A stretch of 64,000 bases of DNA from a virus (taxonomy: Duplodnaviria; Caudoviricetes): IMG/VR virus record IMGVR_UViG_3300021400_000095; one strand, given 5' to 3'. This document shows, piece after piece, positions 4,071 to 25,865 of the stretch. A program made the position numbers and the translations under genes. The notes below the pieces were generated by a model that saw only the letters and a program-made list of their open reading frames with translations, had not been told where the DNA came from and made no database searches. Within the stretch, counting starts at the first letter, position 1; each line of letters starts with the position of its first letter.

Positions 4071-7000
4071 TTAATATAAACCTTTATTAACTACATTACC
4101 ACCCTTGTTATTGGTAATTATCTGTTTTTCAATTAATTTTGTAATTTGTCTAATAAATACAGGACTCTTTAACATTTCATCCATAATGTCTTTTGTAACA
4201 CCATTTCCTGCATCTAACTTAATAGTACCATTAATATTAATATCAATTGGTCCACTATTTATACCTTCACCATTTCCACCAACATTGGATGTGAAATTTC
4301 TGTTGTTAATTAATGAAGGTAAAACACTTAACATCTTCATTGGTAATGGTGTAATACTGGCAAAACCAGTGCTTATTATCTTAAATAAGTTACCTTGCTG
4401 TTTCCTATTTAAAATCATTTCACCACTATTTACTCTAATTAAATTCTTATCACCTTCTTCTGAATTTCCTTTTGCAATACCACCATGTGTAAATGATTCT
4501 GTTGAAATGTCCTGTATGTTGAATACACCTGTACTAACATTTGATGTCATTTCACCAACCTTCATCTGTTTGATTGATTCTATAAATTCACTATCCCCTT
4601 TCTTTCTAATTTCTCTCTCTAACCTATTACTTATGTTACCACTTGCAATTGCTTTTAATTCTTTAACAGAATAATCACCTTGTAATGAATCAAGACCAAA
4701 CTCAGCCTTTTTCTTTTCTCTTCTTTTTTGGTTACCAAATAAATTTTTACCAAGACTTTCACCACCAATTGCACCTGCAATACTACCAATCAAACCACCA
4801 ATAGCAGTACCAACAACAGGTAAAATAGCAGTACCAATTGCAGCACCTGCTGCACCACCACCCCAAGCACCTAATCCTGCACCACCTGCTGAACCAAGTG
4901 TTCTTCCAATTTTCTTTCCAGTTCCATAGTTTTTATTTCCTGCAAACTCATCAATACCTGTCAACAAACCTGAAACTAGTGCAGTTGTAACACCACCAGC
5001 CTTTGCTGCTTTAAAGGCTTTTGCATTTGCAAGATTCTTTAATTTTCCTGCACCACCACCAATACCTGTACCACTACCTAATATTGTTTTTACTCTTGAT
5101 GCATCACTGATGGTTTTAGCAATATTACCTGTGCCAGCAGCAGAACCTTTTGCAGCAGCAGCACCTTTACTTGCAGCCTTAACACCTTTCATTGCTTTAC
5201 CAGCATTTACAAGAGACCTTGCACCACTATATATATCTGCACCTGCACTGATAACACCAAAAGTTTTTATAGCAGCCAATATCAAACCAAGATTTTGATT
5301 TACAGTTGAAATACCTTTTGATACAACAGTATGAATAGGCTCAACAACTTTTGCTTCAATGGCTTCTCTTTTCTTTTCAACACCAATGATTTGTTCTCTC
5401 ATTTGTCTGGTATCAGATGCAATATTTCTAACATCATCAGATTCCTGAGAATTTTGTCTCATAATTTCAAAAAGTAAGCCATTTGACTTTGCCTGTGCAG
5501 CTGTCATTTCTTGCCTGTTACCATTTTTATCAACCAATGATAACATTACTTTTCCATTCTTAACATTAGCAGTGTTCTTGATAAATTCTTTTTCAGTATC
5601 ACTTAAACCTGATATGTTACCAATCTGTGATTCAATATAATTTCTTCTACCACTGGCCTGAACAGATTCCATTACCTGTCCATAATCCATGCCCATGGCT
5701 TGTGCTGCTGCCCTAATTCTTTGTTTGTTATATGCACCTACATCAACTTGTCCTGTTATGGTATTAAATCTTCCAAGGTTTCCAACTATTCTTTGGAACC
5801 TATCCATAAGTCCCTCCATATCAGTAAGACTTTCATTAAGCATTCCTAATGGGTCACTGAATTGTGCAAAAGGACCACCCAATACCTGTAATTGAGCACT
5901 TGTTTCAACAGCACCTTGCAAAGTACCAACTTTTTCAGCAAAACTTGCAATTTGTTGCATATCAAGTCTTATTGCTGTTGCTTTCTTTGCCATACTTTCA
6001 AGTCCTGCCAATCCATTCTTGAATGTATAATTTTGTGCTAATTTAATATTTTGTAAGAAATTTTGTGAGTATTTTTCAAAATTTAAACCATACTTGCTTG
6101 CATTTTTAAACATTTTTCCTGCAAGGTCAGCAGATGCAGAATATGAAAGACCAAAATTTTCAAGGCTTGATGCAAGTTGTGCACCATTTTCACCCATTAT
6201 TTTACTTAATGCAATAGATTTTTCAATGTCTTCATTACTCATACCAATCTGTCTTCCACTACCTTTTATGTAGTTTTCTTGAAGACTGATGATATCTTCC
6301 ATTCCAACACCATATAAATCAGACCAATTTGTTTTTGCAATTGTATTAATGGTATTGACTCTCAAAGCACTCATGGCCTTTCCTGACATACCAATGTTCC
6401 TGACCATGTTTGAGGTTGCTGTATCAACCTTCATCCATGAATCTAAAAACTCTTTACCTATACCAATAATTTTTCTACCACCAGCAGAAATATTACTAAA
6501 GCCACCTTTAACAGTTGACCAAATTTGGTCATATGCATTACTTTGTTTGTTAAGAACTTCAAGATGTTCTGATGCTTCTTTATGTGTTAATCTTTCTGTT
6601 TCTTTAACTTTCTCTGCACTATTATGAGCATTATCATATGCTTCAGAAAGTTTTCTTGCTTCTTCAACTGTTGAACCTACATTTTCAAAATCTTTATCAG
6701 TTAACTCAACTTCTTCTTCTGTTTCATTTTTAATTTCTTCTTTTAGTTTAAGAAGTTCTTTATATTTACTTATGATTTTATCAATTTGGTCACTGTTTTT
6801 TCCTGTACTTTCAACTGTTTCTTCCCAAACCTTTTGATTTTTTTCTGCTTCATTCTTAAACTCCTTTAGTTTTTTTTCTGCTTTTTCAAGAAGATTTGGT
6901 ATTTCAGAAGAACTTTCACCAATTGTATCAGCAAGTTGTTTTTTTGTTTCACTAAATTTTTTAGCAGATTTTTCCAAATCCATTCTTGTTGCTGCAAGAT

Positions 7001-14077: not shown

Positions 14078-16834
14078 TTATTCGTTGAAAGACACACTTT
14101 CAGGGTAGACAACAAATGTTATGCTAATATATTCAAGTGCAGGTGTAGGTTTAACAAGGATTTTTGCTGGAAGGATGTGTTGGTCTCTTGTTTCAGGTGT
14201 TGATTCAGTTTGAATTCTATAATCAACAATACCTCTATTAGACTTAACATCAGCAAGAATTGGTTCTACAAGTGACTTAAATTGTTTTTCAAGGGTTGCA
14301 TCATATTGTTCAAAGATAAGATGTTTAGAAGCCTCAACAACAAGTTTCTTAATTCTAAGCATAAGTCTTCTAACATTAATTCTATTAAGAGGGCTTTCCT
14401 TATCATATAATGTCTTATTACCCCAAACTTTAACACCATCTTGTGCAAATGTCTTGATAGGATTAACTCTATTTTCATAAAGTGTATCTTCATCAGAAAG
14501 AGTTGTCTTAATATCAGCCTTAATACAATCAATATTACCTCTTTCAGTACCAGCAGGTGCAAACCATGGGAATGAGTTATTATCTGTTGCAGCCATATTT
14601 CTAACAACATCCTTTGTTACAGGAAGTGTAAGATATCTCTTAGCAGAATTATCATAATATTTAATCCATGGCCAGTATGTACAAGCATAAGAAGATACAA
14701 TATCACTATCATTAACTGCTTCAGCAATTAAATCTGCTGTTTTAACTTCATTAACATCCATTGGTGAGTTAATGATATAAAGTGCATCACCACCTCTACC
14801 ATCCTCAGGGTCTTCAATCATATCAAGAGCATCTTCTACAAGAAGTGTGTGATGGAAGTAATCAATACCAGGAGTTGCAAACAAGTTAATATAAGAATCT
14901 TGTGGATTTGCAAATTGCATATAACCTGCAAGATATGCATAATAGTCACTTGTAATTGCATTTACTGGAAGATTAAGGTCAAGAGTTGGGTCAAGTACTA
15001 ACTCAGATGAATTAACATAATCAAATGGGCAACCTGAAACAATTGCATATTTAGATGCCTTATATTTATCTGTATTAGTTCTTTCAGCCCTATAAATATC
15101 CCAACCATCAAAGCCACCATATGGATAAACAGTGAACTTTCTTAAGTTAATGTCTTCATAAATTGTTCCCTCAGTCTGAGCCTCAGTAATAAGTCTTGGA
15201 AGTTTCTTTGATTGTGCAGCAGCTTGAAGTCCATCAACTGTTGTAAATGAATAACCAGATTCACTATCAACAAAAATCTTACTATTCATCAAGACATTTG
15301 TTCCAGAAACACTATTGTTATTTGGCATTGAAAGAATTGCATCAAGGTGGAAACCCTTAGTAAGTTTATCAGGGTCAGCATCACCCTTTCCATTTGCATA
15401 TGCAGTTACACCATTATAGTTAAGAACATCAACATCAAGGATATCTCTATTCAAGCCAAAATATTGTCTCTTAGGTTTAATGAAATCATTGAATTCAGTG
15501 TTATATGCAACATCAATTCTTTCACCACCATACTTAGGCATTGGATAACCTAAGAAACCACAAGGAACACAAGATTCAACACCATCTTCCTCTGAAATTT
15601 CAACTGTGATGTATTTTGATTTAGCAACATAGCCACCATCAAAAGTACCAATCTTAGCACCAATATAGTTATTAGTACCAGGCATCATTGAACAATTGGT
15701 GAATTTTTCAAGTACAACAGGTGATACATCACTATCATTGAAGTCTCTTACCCAAACATCAAATAAACCCTCATCAGGTCTGATTCTTTGAATAGAAATC
15801 TTAACTTGTCTATTAGCAGCATCACCATCAGAAATTGTATATACCTTGAAAAGTTTCTTAACATTGATTGCTTCATTAGTTGCTTCTTTAACCTCTGATA
15901 CAATCCAAGGGGTTTGTGCACATCTATATGTTTCTTTATAGTTTACATAATTTTCATTACCACTTGATTCAAGACCTGCTGTTGCAATATCTTCAAATTT
16001 AATTGTTTTATTTTCATTTTCAGGCCTTCTAAGTAAGTCTTGATATGCATAGTCATATAATGCTTCAATATAAACAGGTGCTGAACCTACAAGTGGGTCA
16101 GTGCTGAATACATTGTAAATATATGACCTATCAGTAGGATTAATTGAAACATTGTAACTTGTCTCAGTTGAAGCACTTACAATATTACCATTTTCATCTT
16201 CACTATACTTATTATATGTAATTTTAAGGCCAAACTTACCAAGTTCTACTTTACCATCATTTGAAACAGCAGTTCCACCACTAATTTTACCACTGAGTGG
16301 AATATTTGCTGATACACCACTAATCACACAGTTTGCATCATATGTGGCACTACTATAAGGAACAAGTTGTACTTTAGTAACAATAGGATTGAATGCTTCT
16401 TGTTGTGCTTTTTCACATTCACCACCATTAACATTAGCATAATAATTAGCCTTTGACCTAAGAATTACAAGTGGGTACTTTTTACTATCAATATTAGCAT
16501 AAACACCAAACACTTTACTATTTTCATAACCAGAGATACCAAGAACCCTAACAACATTAAGATTCTTTGATTCCTTCAAGTATTCTTTAGCAACATATGG
16601 AAGTTCATATTTAGGGAGGTCATTACCCTTATACTTTTCAGGTGATGTACCACCAAAGTAGTCTACAAAGTCAGCCCAATCAGTTACAGGTATTGCTTGA
16701 AATGCAGGTCCTTTAAGTGTTTCACCAACAAGACCAAGGCTAGTAATACCTAAGCTTTTAGCTGAGTAAAGAACATCTTTCTCTTCAGTATAAACACCTG
16801 GTGAAACATGACCACCTCTTGCATCACTTATCAT
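14078..16834 (-). CDS. Tail sheath protein (T4 gp18-like)
   Basis: VSPGVYTEEKD, GETLKGPAF, PWFAPAG..RG, LYENRVNPI, WGNKTL, LNRINVRRL. Confidence 0.93.
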   Translation of the reverse strand: MISDARGGHVSPGVYTEEKDVLYSAKSLGITSLGLVGETLKGPAFQAIPVTDWADFVDYFGGTSPEKYKGNDLPKYELPYVAKEYLKESKNLNVVRVLGISGYENSKVFGVYANIDSKKYPLVILRSKANYYANVNGGECEKAQQEAFNPIVTKVQLVPYSSATYDANCVISGVSANIPLSGKISGGTAVSNDGKVELGKFGLKITYNKYSEDENGNIVSASTETSYNVSINPTDRSYIYNVFSTDPLVGSAPVYIEALYDYAYQDLLRRPENENKTIKFEDIATAGLESSGNENYVNYKETYRCAQTPWIVSEVKEATNEAINVKKLFKVYTISDGDAANRQVKISIQRIRPDEGLFDVWVRDFNDSDVSPVVLEKFTNCSMMPGTNNYIGAKIGTFDGGYVAKSKYITVEISEEDGVESCVPCGFLGYPMPKYGGERIDVAYNTEFNDFIKPKRQYFGLNRDILDVDVLNYNGVTAYANGKGDADPDKLTKGFHLDAILSMPNNNSVSGTNVLMNSKIFVDSESGYSFTTVDGLQAAAQSKKLPRLITEAQTEGTIYEDINLRKFTVYPYGGFDGWDIYRAERTNTDKYKASKYAIVSGCPFDYVNSSELVLDPTLDLNLPVNAITSDYYAYLAGYMQFANPQDSYINLFATPGIDYFHHTLLVEDALDMIEDPEDGRGGDALYIINSPMDVNEVKTADLIAEAVNDSDIVSSYACTYWPWIKYYDNSAKRYLTLPVTKDVVRNMAATDNNSFPWFAPAGTERGNIDCIKADIKTTLSDEDTLYENRVNPIKTFAQDGVKVWGNKTLYDKESPLNRINVRRLMLRIKKLVVEASKHLIFEQYDATLEKQFKSLVEPILADVKSNRGIVDYRIQTESTPETRDQHILPAKILVKPTPALEYISITFVVYPESVSFNE

Positions 16835-19432: not shown

Positions 19433-19464
19433 TTTGTTTTTTATTAATAAAATTTATATATTTG
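19433..19464 (+). promoter_or_regulatory. Bacteroidota-type sigma promoter (helicase operon)
   Basis: TTTG-N20-TATATTTG. Confidence 0.7.
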
Positions 19465-19484
19465 TAATAGTTAATATTTTAATT

Positions 19485-21518
19485 GTGAATACTAGTAATG
19501 AGATTGATGAGAAAAATAAAGCAATTGATGTTTTGAAAGAATATTCAGGTGAAAATCCATATCTTTTAGAATTAAAGAATGAAATTATATTAAAAAAACA
19601 TTTTGAAAAACTAAATGATTTTAATTGTGATTATATACTTAGAAATTACAATTTTCAACCAAAATTGATTAACAAAATTGTTAAGATTACTGATTGGTAT
19701 GGTGAAAAATTACAAAAAGATTTCCAATGTGAGTTTAAACCTGAAAAACTTCAAATAAAATATTTGCTTGGTGAAACTGAAAATACATACCATGTTTTGT
19801 TAAAATATAGGCAGAACATGGAATATATTTATATGTTTTTATCCAAAAAGGGGGTTATGACAAATTTTCTTATTAGTGATTACAACTTACTTGATGTTGA
19901 TTTTGATAGATATGATAGATTATCTGCAACATATAGACCTGATAAACCAAGAAAAATAAAAGAACATCAGAAGGCTGGAATAAAATTCCTATTATCAAGA
20001 AAAAAATGTATATTAGCAGATGACATGGGTTTAGCAAAAACAGCACAATTATCAATAGCATCTGTTGAAGGTAATTTTGATAATGTTTTAATAATTTGCC
20101 CAGCATCATTAAAAACTAATTGGTTTGATGAACTTTCATATTATGTACCAACAAGAGAAATTTCAATAATTGGTGGTGTTGGTGATATGAAAAAGAATGA
20201 ACTTGAAAAATATCTTGGATATGGTGTTGGAAAATCAGGAAAAAATATTCAGGAACTTCTACAAGAATCAAAAGAAAGAGGTAAATGGATTGATAATAGA
20301 TATGTTATTATTAATTATGATATTCTATCAGATGTTTATGAAATGCCAAAATCAAGAAAAAAGGCTGATATTATTGAAGCAAGGGAACATAGTCCAATTT
20401 TAAAGTTTATAGAAGGAAAAAAATCATTAATAATTATTGATGAAGCCCATAAACTCTCAAATATGAAATCCCAGCAATATAAAATAATATCTCAATTAAT
20501 TAATATTGGGAAACCTGATAGTGTATATCTTGCAACAGGAACACCAATTACTAATGACCCTGTAAATTATTTTAATATTCTTTCACTGATTGAAAATAAT
20601 ATAACTTCTGATTGGAAATATTATATGGAAAGGTATTGTGGTGCTAAATCATTTCCAAAAGATAATATTGAAAAGGAAAAAAGAGATAGAATTTCAAGGG
20701 AATTTATTTTTAATAAAGGGAAAAAAAATTGGTATGAACTAACAGATGAAGAAAAGAAAGAATTAAATAATTTAATAAATAAATCTGTTAAAATGAAAAC
20801 AATACCAATGGAGCCAACCCATTTGGATGAATTGATGGAAGTAACAAAACATATTTATTTAAGAAGAACAAAAGAAGATTTAGGTGGTCTTCCATCTAAA
20901 TATGTTTATGAAAAAATATATGATTTAACTGATGAACAAAAAGAAGAATATAATAAACTTTGGAGTGAATATGTTGAACAACAAAAAGAATTAGAACCTA
21001 ATAAAGAAATAAACAAGGAACTTCTTGAAGGTGCTATATATAGAAAATATCTTTCAAATCAAATGGTTCCTTACACAATTAATTTAGCTGAAAAATGTAT
21101 TAAAAGGGGTGAAAAGGTTATAATTGCTTGTTGTTATGATGAAGAACTTTATACTTTAAAAGATTATTTTGATGATAAATGTGTTGTTTATAATGGAAAA
21201 ATGAGTTTAAAACAAAAAGATGAAGCCAAAAATAAATTTATAAACAACCCTGAATGTATGGTATTTATTGGTAATATAGATAGTTGTGGTGTTGGTATTA
21301 ATCTGACTGTTAGTAGAGTTGTAATTTTTAATAATTTTTCATTTGTTCCCGGTATAAATAGACAAATGGAAGACAGGTGTTATAGACTTGGACAAACAAG
21401 GGACTGTCATATTTTTTATCAATTTTTTAGAGATACACAATATCAAAAAATGTGGGGCACAGTTCTGAAAAAAGAATTAAATATTAATCAAATTATTAAG
21501 AAAGAAAATGAAAAATAA
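19485..21518 (+). CDS. SNF2-family helicase
   Basis: LADDMGLAKT, IICPASLK.NW, DEAH, ATGTP, GVGINLT, QMEDRCYRLGQ; start moved to GTG 19485 just after a host-type promoter. Confidence 0.9.
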   Translation: MNTSNEIDEKNKAIDVLKEYSGENPYLLELKNEIILKKHFEKLNDFNCDYILRNYNFQPKLINKIVKITDWYGEKLQKDFQCEFKPEKLQIKYLLGETENTYHVLLKYRQNMEYIYMFLSKKGVMTNFLISDYNLLDVDFDRYDRLSATYRPDKPRKIKEHQKAGIKFLLSRKKCILADDMGLAKTAQLSIASVEGNFDNVLIICPASLKTNWFDELSYYVPTREISIIGGVGDMKKNELEKYLGYGVGKSGKNIQELLQESKERGKWIDNRYVIINYDILSDVYEMPKSRKKADIIEAREHSPILKFIEGKKSLIIIDEAHKLSNMKSQQYKIISQLINIGKPDSVYLATGTPITNDPVNYFNILSLIENNITSDWKYYMERYCGAKSFPKDNIEKEKRDRISREFIFNKGKKNWYELTDEEKKELNNLINKSVKMKTIPMEPTHLDELMEVTKHIYLRRTKEDLGGLPSKYVYEKIYDLTDEQKEEYNKLWSEYVEQQKELEPNKEINKELLEGAIYRKYLSNQMVPYTINLAEKCIKRGEKVIIACCYDEELYTLKDYFDDKCVVYNGKMSLKQKDEAKNKFINNPECMVFIGNIDSCGVGINLTVSRVVIFNNFSFVPGINRQMEDRCYRLGQTRDCHIFYQFFRDTQYQKMWGTVLKKELNINQIIKKENEK

Positions 21519-21981: not shown

Positions 21982-22746
21982 ATGGAAGAATATCTAGCAT
22001 TTATTGATGAAGTTGGTAGAACAGTTGATGGAAATTATTTGTATAGATTTGATTTTACAAATGAGCCTGACACTGTGTGGGGTGAATATTTCAATGTTGC
22101 ACCATCCATAATTATACCAAATTTACAACCTGATGAAAATTGTATCAATAAATCAGGAAGGGTTGAAATGGAGCAACATTTGAATTTGGCTAAAAAGAAT
22201 GGATGTTTTTCAATGCAGGATTGTTTTGACCATATAATTTCACTTGGGTTTACTGATATTGATGACAACAATGAACTTATTTTTAATTTTGCTGATACAT
22301 ATGAAGATGTTGTTGAAAAACTTAGAAAAAATAACATTGAATTAACAAACATTGAAATAAAAGAAAAAAAAGGTGAAAAAATTTTAGATGATTTAATTGA
22401 CAAAATTGAAGACATTGAAAAAACAACAGTAAATGACAAATTTGATTTTTACAAAGATTTATATAAAGAAATATTAACTATTGAAATTGGTCAAGAAATA
22501 TCATTTAATGATATTAATCAAATTCTATTTGATAATGGTTATGAAAAAGTTGACTTTATATACAAAAAGAAACAATATACAATAAGAGGACATATTGTAG
22601 ATATATTCTCAATTTCATATGATTATAAATATCCTGTAAGAATTTCATTTTTTGGTAATACTGTAGAGAGTATGTATACATATGATGTTAATACACAAGA
22701 TAAAATTGAAGATTTAGAAAAAATAACAATTTATAATAATATTTAG
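21982..22746 (+). CDS. Phage protein fused to a UvrB/Mfd UvrA-interaction domain
   Basis: N-terminal domain paralogous to 23328; C-terminal GYEKVDF..QYTIRGHIVDIFS..PVRISFFGNTVESMYTYDVNTQ matches the UvrB domain 2 / Mfd D2 pattern. Confidence 0.7.
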   Translation: MEEYLAFIDEVGRTVDGNYLYRFDFTNEPDTVWGEYFNVAPSIIIPNLQPDENCINKSGRVEMEQHLNLAKKNGCFSMQDCFDHIISLGFTDIDDNNELIFNFADTYEDVVEKLRKNNIELTNIEIKEKKGEKILDDLIDKIEDIEKTTVNDKFDFYKDLYKEILTIEIGQEISFNDINQILFDNGYEKVDFIYKKKQYTIRGHIVDIFSISYDYKYPVRISFFGNTVESMYTYDVNTQDKIEDLEKITIYNNI

Positions 22747-22751
22747 AAAAT

Positions 22752-23324
22752 ATGTTAGATGAAGAAAAATTAATATCAGAAATAAAAATGATATCTAATG
22801 ACCTATTGTTTTTATCTTTTAATGAAATAAAAAATAGATTAGACAGAATAGTTAGAAAGTATGAAGATTCTAAAATGATTTTAAAAATTTTAAAAAATGT
22901 AAAAGAGAATCCTATTAATGATGAAAAAAAGATATTTAATGAATATTTAATACTTTTAAGACCTGATTTAACTTGTTCTTTAAATTTTGAAAATAATAAA
23001 ATTAAATATACTTTTAACAATTATTTTATTGATGATGAAGATGTAGAAAAAACTATTAGGAAAAAAATGTCAGAAAGTGACACTTTTAAAGAATTAAAAG
23101 AATATTTTGAAAAACCTGAAACCTTTGAAGATTTCCAAAATTTCTTAGTAGATTTAGATGAAAATAAACACACTGTGTTATTAAAAAATCTTGAAACTTA
23201 TCATGATTTCTTCAAGCCATTTTATAATTCTGTTAATATTGATGGTCAATATGAATATGTAACAAGTGACATATCAAAAAAAATAAATAATGATACTTAT
23301 ATAAATTGGGAAGAAAAAAATTAA
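22752..23324 (+). CDS. Hypothetical protein
   Basis: 190 aa ORF in operon. Confidence 0.55.
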   Translation: MLDEEKLISEIKMISNDLLFLSFNEIKNRLDRIVRKYEDSKMILKILKNVKENPINDEKKIFNEYLILLRPDLTCSLNFENNKIKYTFNNYFIDDEDVEKTIRKKMSESDTFKELKEYFEKPETFEDFQNFLVDLDENKHTVLLKNLETYHDFFKPFYNSVNIDGQYEYVTSDISKKINNDTYINWEEKN

Positions 23325-23327
23325 AAA

Positions 23328-23714
23328 ATGTCAGATTTATTTCTTGTATATGTAAAACCACTATGTAAAAACATTAATGGCACTTTTGAATATCAATTGT
23401 TTTTTAGTGAAACACCTGAAGTTGTGTGGGGTGTTGATTGGAATGTTGAAGTACCAAACTCAATTAAGGATTTAACACCTGAAAAATCAACATATTCAAA
23501 AATTGTTAATATAAAAAGTATTTTCCCATTTAAAACAATTGAAGAAACCTCCTGCTATTCCATGGAATATGCAATTAATGGTATAATTGCATTATCTTGG
23601 GTTGATATTGAGAATCTTGAAGATTATCCACCAAGTAGGGCTGTACTTCATTTTAATGATTCTTATGATAAAGTCAAAAACATTTTAAGTAATATTTTTA
23701 TTGAAATGAATTGA
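23328..23714 (+). CDS. Hypothetical protein, paralog of the 21982 N-terminal domain
   Basis: Shared G...Y...F...P..VWG...NV and SM.....II.L motifs. Confidence 0.65.
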   Translation: MSDLFLVYVKPLCKNINGTFEYQLFFSETPEVVWGVDWNVEVPNSIKDLTPEKSTYSKIVNIKSIFPFKTIEETSCYSMEYAINGIIALSWVDIENLEDYPPSRAVLHFNDSYDKVKNILSNIFIEMN

Positions 23715-23779: not shown

Positions 23780-24931
23780 ATGAGTAATTTAAAACCTTCT
23801 GTTGGCAATGTAATAATTGATGAAACAGGAAGAGAATTTAGTAGTGTAAGGCAACTTGCTAAACATTTAAACATTAATAAAGATTGCATTCTTAGAAGAC
23901 TTAAAAGAGATGAACCATTTAAATATGGTGGGCATACTTATGGTTTGAAAAATGTAAATTACATTGGATATGAAAATAAAGAAAACAATATTCAAAATCC
24001 TGATATTCAGCAAGAAATAGTTTATTCTGAAGAATATCAACAATTTCTTGAATCTAAAAATGTTGCAGAATTACCATTTGAAAAATATACATTTGATGTA
24101 GATACTGCTGAAAATGGAAAGAAATATGCAATTGCACTTTTCTCTGATGCACACATTGAAGAAACTGTTGACCCAAGAACTGTTTTAGGTCTTAATGAAT
24201 ATAGTATTGATATTGCTGAAAAGAGAATCCAATGCTATTTTAAGAATCTTGTTAAAGCATTAAATGAAGATGAAGTACAAAATCTTATTTTTGCAAGTTT
24301 GGGTGATACCATAAGTTCTTATATACATGAGGAATTAGTTGAGAATAATTCATTAAGTCCACTTGAAGCAACTTTTAAAGCACAAAGTCTTATTTTTAGT
24401 GGTCTTGAATATATTGTTGAAAATAGTACTGTAGAGCATATTAAGTTTATTGGTATTGTTGGTAATCATAGTAGAACTACTAAGAAAATTCAACATAGCA
24501 ATGGCCATGTAATGTCATATGAATGGTTAATGTACAAGAATATTGAAAGGCAAATTCAATTGACAGGTCTTCCCATTGAAGTTGAAATCCCTAACAGTGA
24601 GATGTCTATTCTTGAAACAAGTGATGGTAAGAGATATATGTTTATGCATGGTTTCCAAATTAAGTCAACAGGTAATGCAACTGTTTCTGGTATTTATCCT
24701 GCTTTAAATAGATTAAGTCTTAAATTAGATAGAAATTTCCATCAGGATAAGATTTATATTGGACATTTCCATACATGTGTTTCAATTCCAAATGCAACTG
24801 TTAATGGTTCTATTATTGGATTTAATGCATTTGCACTTTCAAATGGTTTCTCATATGAAGAACCAGCACAAATGTATGAACTGTTCTCAAATGGTAGTTT
24901 AATTCTAACAAGAAAAATTTATTGTAAGTAA
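23780..24931 (+). CDS. Calcineurin-like metallophosphoesterase with N-terminal NUMOD/HTH-like segment
   Basis: SDAH, LGD, GNH, MHG, GHFH motifs; [19 protein letters not shown]-terminus. Confidence 0.8.
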
Positions 24932-24932
24932 T

Positions 24933-25865
24933 ATGAAGGGAATTATATTAGCTGGAGGTGCAGGAACAAGACTTCACCCAATTACAAAAGGAATCAGCAA
25001 GCAGCTACTTCCAATTTATGATAAACCTATGATTTATTACCCTCTGTCAATCCTTATGCTTGCTGATATAAAAGATATTCTTATCATTACAACACCTGAA
25101 GAACAATCAATGTTCAAGAGATTGCTTGGTAATGGTTCAGATTTTGGCATTAATCTCCAATATGCTGTTCAGGAAAAACCAAATGGTTTGGCTGAAGCAT
25201 TTATTATTGGTGAAGAATTCATTGGTGATGATGCTGTTTGTTTAATATTGGGTGATAATATTTTCCATGGTTCAAATATAAGTGTAAAGTTGAATTTGGC
25301 AAGAACCATTGTTGAAGATACTAAAAATGCAAGAGCAGTTGTCTTTGGTTATCAAGTATCTGACCCTGAAAGATATGGTGTTGCTGAAGTGACTAAGACT
25401 GATGTTGAATTTCCAAACAATTTATATTGTGTAAAATCACTTGAAGAAAAACCAAAGAATCCAAAATCAAATATTGCAGTAACAGGATTATACTTCTATC
25501 CAAATTCTGTTGTTAATGTAGCAAAAAATATTAAACCATCAGCAAGAGGTGAACTTGAAATTACTGAAGTAAATAATGTATATAATAATATGATTGCAAA
25601 TGATGGTGGAACAATGCTTGACCTTATTATGTTTGATAGGGGTTATGCTTGGCTTGACACTGGAACTTTTGATAGTCTATCAGATGCATCAAATTACATT
25701 GAAACAATTCAGAAAAGACAAGGTTTAAAAGTTGCTTGTTTGGAAGAAATTGCATATAATAAAGGATGGATTAGTAAACAACAACTTTTGGAAGCAGGTG
25801 AAAAATTAAAGAAAAATGATTATGGAAAATATCTATTGAATCTTATAAATAAAGCCATAGACTAA
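24933..25865 (+). CDS. rmlA: Glucose-1-phosphate thymidylyltransferase
   Basis: [62 protein letters not shown]. Confidence 0.96.

Follow-up and report, generated by a model that had tools for sequence, protein, structure and literature searches.

The stretch of DNA analyzed here, hereafter the window, is 64,000 nt of a tailed-phage record (IMG/VR IMGVR_UViG_3300021400_000095). It is AT-rich (23 to 34% G+C) and includes a tail-sheath gene (positions 14078 to 16834) whose best matches are T4-like myophage sheaths. Related loci were found on IMG/VR contigs rated complete, of up to 363 and 393 kb, and sheep and bovine gut metagenomes are among the sequencing runs in which the region occurs. The carriers of the gene fusion described below are roughly 360- to 390-kb ruminant-gut jumbo phages. 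Statements about gene content rest on two complete relatives with the fusion (G001 and G002), not on the window's own whole genome. Since the complete relatives encode two sigma factors and lack an RNA polymerase beta subunit, transcription would be carried out by the host polymerase. Promoter and terminator scans stayed at chance level, and no RNA datasets were present among the listed runs containing the region.

The fusion gene lies in a packed same-strand run that comprises an SNF2-family helicase gene, variable small genes, the fusion itself, a paralogue of its N-terminal part, and an exonuclease-family gene (Table 1). The SNF2 gene was located at most 4 kb upstream of the fusion-gene family in 43 of 48 loci and was the sole Helicase_C gene in five large genomes. 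A 190-aa gene with no recognized family (22752 to 23324) separates the fusion from the paralogue in the window lineage only. In relatives, a 262-aa gene with a faint match to an RNA 2′-phosphotransferase family (E = 5e-4; L002:5210-5995) is often found between the helicase and the fusion. Further downstream in the window (24933 to 25865) lies an RfbA-like glucose-1-phosphate thymidylyltransferase gene with 63 to 77% DNA identity to Bacteroidales copies, and when 301 genomes from the candidate host family were searched at the DNA level for CRISPR spacers, the matches listed were to rfbA only. Both complete fused genomes share an adjacent EcoRI-type methyltransferase and GmrSD_N-HNH gene, a restriction-modification-like pair (L266:6382-9154 in G002). 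DUF1848 was considered as a gene specific to the fused clade and was rejected, being present in an unfused genome.

Table 1. Features of the fusion gene and its neighbors, in window positions.
Feature	Positions	Strand	Remarks
SNF2-family SF2 helicase/translocase	19434..21518	+	conserved upstream operon member
Fusion gene, 254 aa: conserved phage domain, acidic linker, and Mfd-D2 (UvrB_inter)	21982..22746	+	ORF
N-terminal phage domain (carrier), aa 1–126	21982..22359	+	conserved C-[FY]-S-M motif
Conserved helix (aa 133–144) and acidic flexible linker	22360..22461	+	unfused orthologues stop here
Captured Mfd domain D2 (UvrA-binding module type), aa 165–251	22474..22734	+	assigned from profile, structure, and trees
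R202, equivalent to E. coli Mfd R165	22585..22587	+	invariant, 31/31 phage copies (100%)
R220, equivalent to E. coli Mfd R181	22639..22641	+	kept in 97% of 31 phage copies
F224, equivalent to E. coli Mfd F185	22651..22653	+	F in 81%, I in 13% of 31 phage copies
Paralogue of the N-terminal domain, without D2	23328..23714	+	24% identity, E 4e-13; conserved downstream neighbor
Exonuclease-family gene (phrog_284)	23780..24931	+	usual next neighbor in fused clade; weak N-terminal NUMOD1-like DNA-binding motif

The original prediction had recognized the pattern of UvrB domain 2 or Mfd D2 at 22471 to 22746, and profile, PDB, and superposition data bear this out. The PF17757 (UvrB_inter) profile matched residues 165 to 251 over 86 of its 91 positions (1 to 86), with E values of 1.3e-18 for the whole protein and 5.5e-20 for the piece alone; the scores of 67 to 72 bits are about three times the curated cut-off of 22.9. 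The top PDB sequence matches of the domain were E. coli Mfd D2 (4DFC_A, E = 2.4e-9) and UvrB domain 2 (3FPN_B, E = 1.1e-8). The AlphaFold model contains two confident domains and a low-confidence linker (residues 130 to 156). Its D2 part was superimposed on 4DFC_A with an rmsd of 1.1 Å over 84 columns [TM(target) of 0.91] and on 3FPN_B with an rmsd of 1.6 Å [TM(target) of 0.83]. Profile and model together identify D2 as a true PF17757 member with the UvrB-domain-2 fold; its sequence is of the Mfd D2 type.

No family other than PF17757 reached its cut-off in the Pfam profile search of the 254-aa protein, in agreement with the earlier observation that helicase domains are absent. Missing are the CarD-like RNA polymerase–interacting domain, the RecG-like SF2 translocase, and D7 of Mfd, as well as the SF2 helicase core, β-hairpin, and C-terminal UVR domain of UvrB. 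Judged by domain content, the protein can be classed neither as Mfd nor as UvrB. The fusion does not stem from misassembly: in three other animal-gut studies, single contigs cover the gene whole, with substitutions only and no joints or indels, and ~30 other sequence clusters share the architecture.

The N-terminal domain, or carrier, belongs to a family with 364 representatives at 50% identity. Its model (pLDDT of 89.5) had no significant fold match in the PDB (best Z score of 3.4 in the VIA wide search; no Foldseek match with E ≤ 0.001), which is not proof of a new fold. A search of the ESM Atlas returned nothing significant, feature searches on the domain yielded nothing usable, and no relatives were found among GenBank phages. 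An SSB or OB-fold identity was considered on account of the acidic tail; the OB-fold rows in the Foldseek output were nonsignificant only (E > 0.3, TM < 0.2). The fold is shared with an uncharacterized phage protein in BFVD, A0A6J5LAG9 (TM of 0.81, 31% identity), which is 139 aa long and, unlike the 254-aa fusion, has no D2. The neighboring paralogue at 23328, originally noted as lacking D2, does lack it: it aligns to residues 4 to 121 only and has no PF17757 match. In two distant phages (P0242 and P0313), both paralogous domains are naturally fused in tandem in one chain. This hints that carrier and paralogue work as a heterodimer, so the paralogue is a possible partner of the carrier. Another sequence, P0029, appears chimeric, with a distant paralogue-type N terminus joined at the conserved Cys motif to sequence identical to P0012.

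The fused and unfused sets were drawn from a search of 5.8 billion proteins. Twenty-nine full-length fused clusters encode proteins of 237 to 274 aa that are 42 to 98% identical to the window protein. Two further divergent fusions were recovered by profile search, giving 31 fused sequences that form one subclade and, as a group, are roughly 40 to 70% identical to the window protein. The larger set of orthologues without D2 comprises proteins of 151 to 168 aa, most of them near 158 aa. At ~50% identity, these unfused orthologues are a better comparator for the phage domain than the paralogue named in the original prediction. Their tails are acidic (D/E make up 40% of the last 15 residues), and the last residue is F, I, W, or Y in 63 of 91 of them. 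In the fused clade, D2 comes after the acidic stretch and replaces this terminus.

Trees were built without P0029 and without P0001, a near-copy of the window gene. In the N-domain tree, all 30 fused rows fell on one branch (SH-aLRT of 91, quick tree) together with three unfused rows. One of these three, P0226, carries a linker frameshift with D2 intact downstream; the other two have long branches, and D2 was not found behind them. The D2 domains of the phages group in a single clade with support of 100/100. One capture followed by few losses is the simplest reading of these trees, and phages are already known to acquire interaction domains from their hosts. Among proteins of 50 to 191 aa, D2 was not found as a stand-alone phage family. 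The only free D2 copy found was a nonsense-split allele from a single sample (L323:741-1523), in which a TAA divides the carrier from D2 and an ATG restart follows two codons on; it is either a real fission or an error. A linker frameshift, with D2 intact in a different frame ahead of the paralogue, was seen at L222:2018-2745. Matches of D2 among GenBank phages were rejected, as they resemble bacterial mfd or uvrB in host-derived contigs (the annotated ones are mfd or uvrB).

The suggestion that the domain was captured from a Bacteroidota Mfd was supported by profile scores, trees, and diagnostic columns. After phage proteins, the best annotated full-length matches all had Mfd architecture and none was UvrB; the named ones were from Bacteroidales or Weeksellaceae. 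Mfd outscored UvrB in 71 of 71 Bacteroidota genomes, and all 31 phage copies preferred the Mfd profile (median of 89 versus 59 bits). Of 17 columns diagnostic for Mfd versus UvrB, 14 side with Mfd, and the remaining three are sites where the phage departed from the Mfd consensus. In an approximately unbiased (AU) test over 92 columns, grouping with UvrB was not rejected (P = 0.34). The phage clade was sister to Mfd of the Cryptobacteroides/UBA932 type in two trees (100/98 and 90/96), in which that lineage is oversampled. Mean identity was also highest to this lineage (38.5%; other Mfd, 30%; UvrB, 27%). AU tests on alternative donor placements rejected none of them (P = 0.10 and 0.20, 92 columns), and the genus-level diagnostic columns for a Cryptobacteroides/UBA932 donor split 4:9. 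Overall, an origin from Mfd D2 is well supported by these comparisons, a Bacteroidales donor is likely, and Cryptobacteroides/UBA932 is a candidate donor lineage.

Compared to its relatives of known function, the phage D2 shares with Mfd/TRCF D2 (PF17757; 4DFC, 2EYQ) the fold (~1.1 Å), the equivalents of R165, R181, and F185, the Mfd-type diagnostic residues, and the predicted UvrA interface, with a best identity of ~45%. Mfd additionally has D1a/D1b, the RNA polymerase–interacting domain, the translocase, and the D7 mask, all of which are missing from the phage protein. Unlike Mfd D2, the phage domain is placed C-terminally on an unrelated phage domain. Positions 230, 232, 238, 240, and 241, invariant in Mfd, are relaxed in the phage copies; those at 230, 232, 238, and 240 may reflect lost intramolecular contacts. 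UvrB domain 2 (3FPN_B) has the same fold and the same UvrA site at ~27% mean identity, but the phage D2 lacks UvrB-diagnostic residues (e.g., Asp at 204 and Arg/Lys at 200), the helicase, and the β-hairpin.

Four closer pairs of D2 sequences had dN/dS values of 0.13, 0.11, 0.20, and 0.20; deeper pairs, which are close to saturation, had values of 0.3 to 0.5. The D2 frame stayed intact across a tree whose branches sum to ~12 substitutions per site. By these measures, D2 is under purifying selection. The possibility that it has been carried along neutrally since an old recombination event, for which the one frameshifted and one nonsense-split allele could be cited, is thus largely refuted by the low dN/dS of the closer pairs and by the intact frame, and we give it very little weight.

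Residues that contact UvrA were drawn from published work (PMC3025350, PMC13453472) and from the predicted interface. In Mfd, triple substitution of R165, R181, and F185 abolishes UvrA binding and transcription-coupled repair (PMC3025350). The expectation that such residues are retained was confirmed for the equivalents of all three (Table 1), the F185 equivalent being missing in two divergent phage copies. The predicted interface comprises 19 positions (174 to 176, 192, 202 to 205, 207, 220, 222 to 227, and 239 to 241). In phage copies, these positions change more slowly than the remaining ones (0.80 versus 1.08, P = 0.015), and the difference holds when only non-core interface sites are considered (P = 0.016). 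Interface conservation is less strict in the phage copies than in host Mfd. The window copy has T227, a position at which E is found in most Mfd, in all UvrB, and in 65% of the phage copies; positions 240 and 241 drift; and position 204, at the center of the predicted interface, carries a bulky, phage-specific H, Y, or F in place of the small residue of Mfd and the Asp of UvrB.

The window's D2 was co-folded with the domain of UvrA that binds UvrB; the UvrA came from a Bacteroidales genome of the UBA932 type and is a stand-in that may not be the host's own protein. The complex scored an ipSAE of 0.65 (best of three controls, 0.00), with contact agreement between runs of at least 93% and a partner pLDDT of at least 90. 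The mark used was reached by 58 of 80 solved pairs and 2 of 110 mismatched pairs in calibration. Because similar complexes have been solved (3FPN/4DFC), the high score may stem from resemblance to those structures. Genes for UvrA, UvrB, Mfd, and RNA polymerase were all absent from G001 and G002, as were a UvrA-type domain, a second PF17757 domain, and a second SF2 helicase. Since the complete fused genomes contain no UvrA, the partner would be the UvrA of the host. The kept contact residues, the co-fold, and this gene content make host UvrA the probable partner, as originally predicted, and we consider it likely that the phage D2 binds UvrA.

Two other partners were weighed against UvrA. D2 could have been kept to bind a phage protein (the helicase, the paralogue, or another) in place of the acidic tail, with its UvrA role lost. 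The conservation of the R-G, D, P-x-R, and G residues may be partly structural, position 204 is phage-specific, and the same fold is reused outside repair as UB2H of PBP1b (PF14814), which is ~14% identical and under the Pfam cut-off for the phage D2. Yet selection has preserved the exposed F185 equivalent along with further interface sites outside the core, and the co-folded complex with UvrA reaches the mark; we regard such repurposing as improbable. Alternatively, the phage D2 could bind D7 of host Mfd in trans, opening the D2-D7 clamp and deregulating Mfd on transcription complexes. R165 and R181 also build the D2-D7 interface of Mfd (PMC3025350), D7 (PF03461) is kept in the nearest host Mfds, and the phages combine their own sigma factors with the absence of a polymerase. 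An intermolecular D2 must, however, outcompete the intramolecular contact, and F185, exposed in the clamp (PMC3025350), is nonetheless conserved in phage copies; we regard this as more improbable still.

If D2 binds UvrA, as seems likely, what it does there depends on whether it acts where the carrier is. The best explanation, which we hold tentatively, is a tethered UvrA adaptor. A phage ancestor would have taken the D2-coding part of mfd from a member of the Bacteroidota, probably of the Bacteroidales, and spliced it to a core gene at its 3′ end. Comparison with unfused orthologues shows that the graft stands in place of the end of the acidic C-terminal tail. With no D7 mask and the UvrA-contact surface conserved, the protein would present a permanently exposed UvrA-binding site. 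The carrier, probably paired with the downstream paralogue, may work with the SNF2 translocase, as their synteny suggests, and the complex would hold host UvrA at phage DNA. In this way, the recruiting step of Mfd would be imitated without the Mfd motor or RNA polymerase–binding domain, and lesions or adducts on phage DNA might be handed to host UvrAB first. At high expression, the same protein could also pull UvrA off the host chromosome.

Several observations argue for the adaptor. D2 is fused in essentially all copies, with no free family; the carrier is a core gene downstream of the phage's sole SF2 translocase; and D2 replaces an acidic C-terminal tail of a kind that usually mediates protein contacts. 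A weaker pointer is the RecD2 helicase (PF14490), which is present in both complete fused genomes (L256:10398-12524 in G002 and G001:292007-292279) and was not found in eight unfused records; this link compares two related genomes with only two complete unfused ones. Against the adaptor are the interface drift at T227 and 240 to 241 and the two divergent copies that have no F185 equivalent, the fact that operon neighbors need not bind one another, and the allele in which D2 is split off with its own ATG. Moreover, since D2 and UvrB compete for one site on UvrA, an unmasked D2 present in large amounts may hinder UvrB loading instead of promoting it.

The last point leads to the main alternative, a decoy, in which unmasked D2 fills the UvrB/Mfd site of host UvrA and shuts down both global and transcription-coupled excision repair. 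UvrABC would thereby be kept off phage replication, recombination, or packaging intermediates, and the carrier would provide expression and location only. The decoy draws on the same contact residues, co-fold, and slow interface sites as the adaptor. UvrA is scarce relative to typical phage proteins, and the one natural allele that appears to express D2 apart from the carrier fits the same reading. Mfd without D7 inhibits the UvrA GTPase, and its sequestration of UvrA has been proposed (PMC3025350); in intact Mfd, D7 covers D2 up to the point of activation, an arrangement proposed to keep UvrA from being sequestered or diverted from global nucleotide excision repair (NER) (PMC13453472). Both the biochemistry of D7-less Mfd and the proposed role of masking speak for a decoy. 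On the other hand, no stand-alone D2 family was detected among proteins of 50 to 191 aa, the graft sits on a core gene within a helicase operon, and no bulky DNA modification marker was found among those tested. We consider the decoy rather unlikely. The tethering of D2 to a core protein in a helicase operon leans toward the adaptor, and the tethering of UvrA to a phage DNA-processing module is slightly favored over a free decoy.

It had also been proposed that the protein protects modified phage DNA, and the markers tested lend this no support. In a marker survey that was not exhaustive, no TGT/DpdA was found, and the methylases were of the N6/N4 and EcoRI types only. An adenylosuccinate synthetase–family gene keeps the PurA Asp and is PurA-like, not PurZ-like; a Z-genome is therefore not supported. 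ThyA or ThyX was present without a pattern.

In some relatives, NADAR and ADP-ribosylglycohydrolase genes lie within the same helicase operon (L222:3147-3653; L223:1682-2500 and 4559-5125), a possible counter-defense against DNA ADP-ribosylation. ADP-ribose adducts made by DarT are removed by NER (PMC7003065). A bolder version of the tethered adaptor, which we think unlikely, is that the SNF2 translocase, the carrier heterodimer, and the stolen UvrA hook of Mfd make up a two-part analogue of transcription- or replication-repair coupling that steers host NER onto phage DNA. One possible use of such an analogue would be the stripping of defense-inflicted adducts such as DarT ADP-ribose. A known counterpart of the phage protein is engineered Mfd without D7 or with a broken D2-D7 clamp (PMC3025350), in which exposed D2 engages UvrA without activation, as proposed for the phage D2. 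That protein is a laboratory construct that keeps the motor, whereas the phage protein would be a natural minimal version on a new carrier.

Nothing relevant to a phage-borne PF17757 domain, Mfd D2, or UvrA-binding phage protein was found in the searchable literature, and literature searches returned no phage protein that engages UvrA via the Mfd/UvrB docking site. Our results suggest that these phages capture host excision-repair machinery. UvrA binding is easily testable, as E. coli UvrA assays and the triple-mutant control exist already. If UvrA is bound, the protein, decoy or adaptor alike, would provide a ligand, natural and encoded in a genome, for the UvrA-UvrB/Mfd interface. This interface is being explored as a target for anti-evolution drugs and antibiotic adjuvants (PMC6320318, PMC9152706). 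The fusion also offers a first handle on a widespread phage core protein without a recognized fold. If the proposed function is true, excision repair would matter enough in jumbo-phage infection to be selected for across a deep clade.
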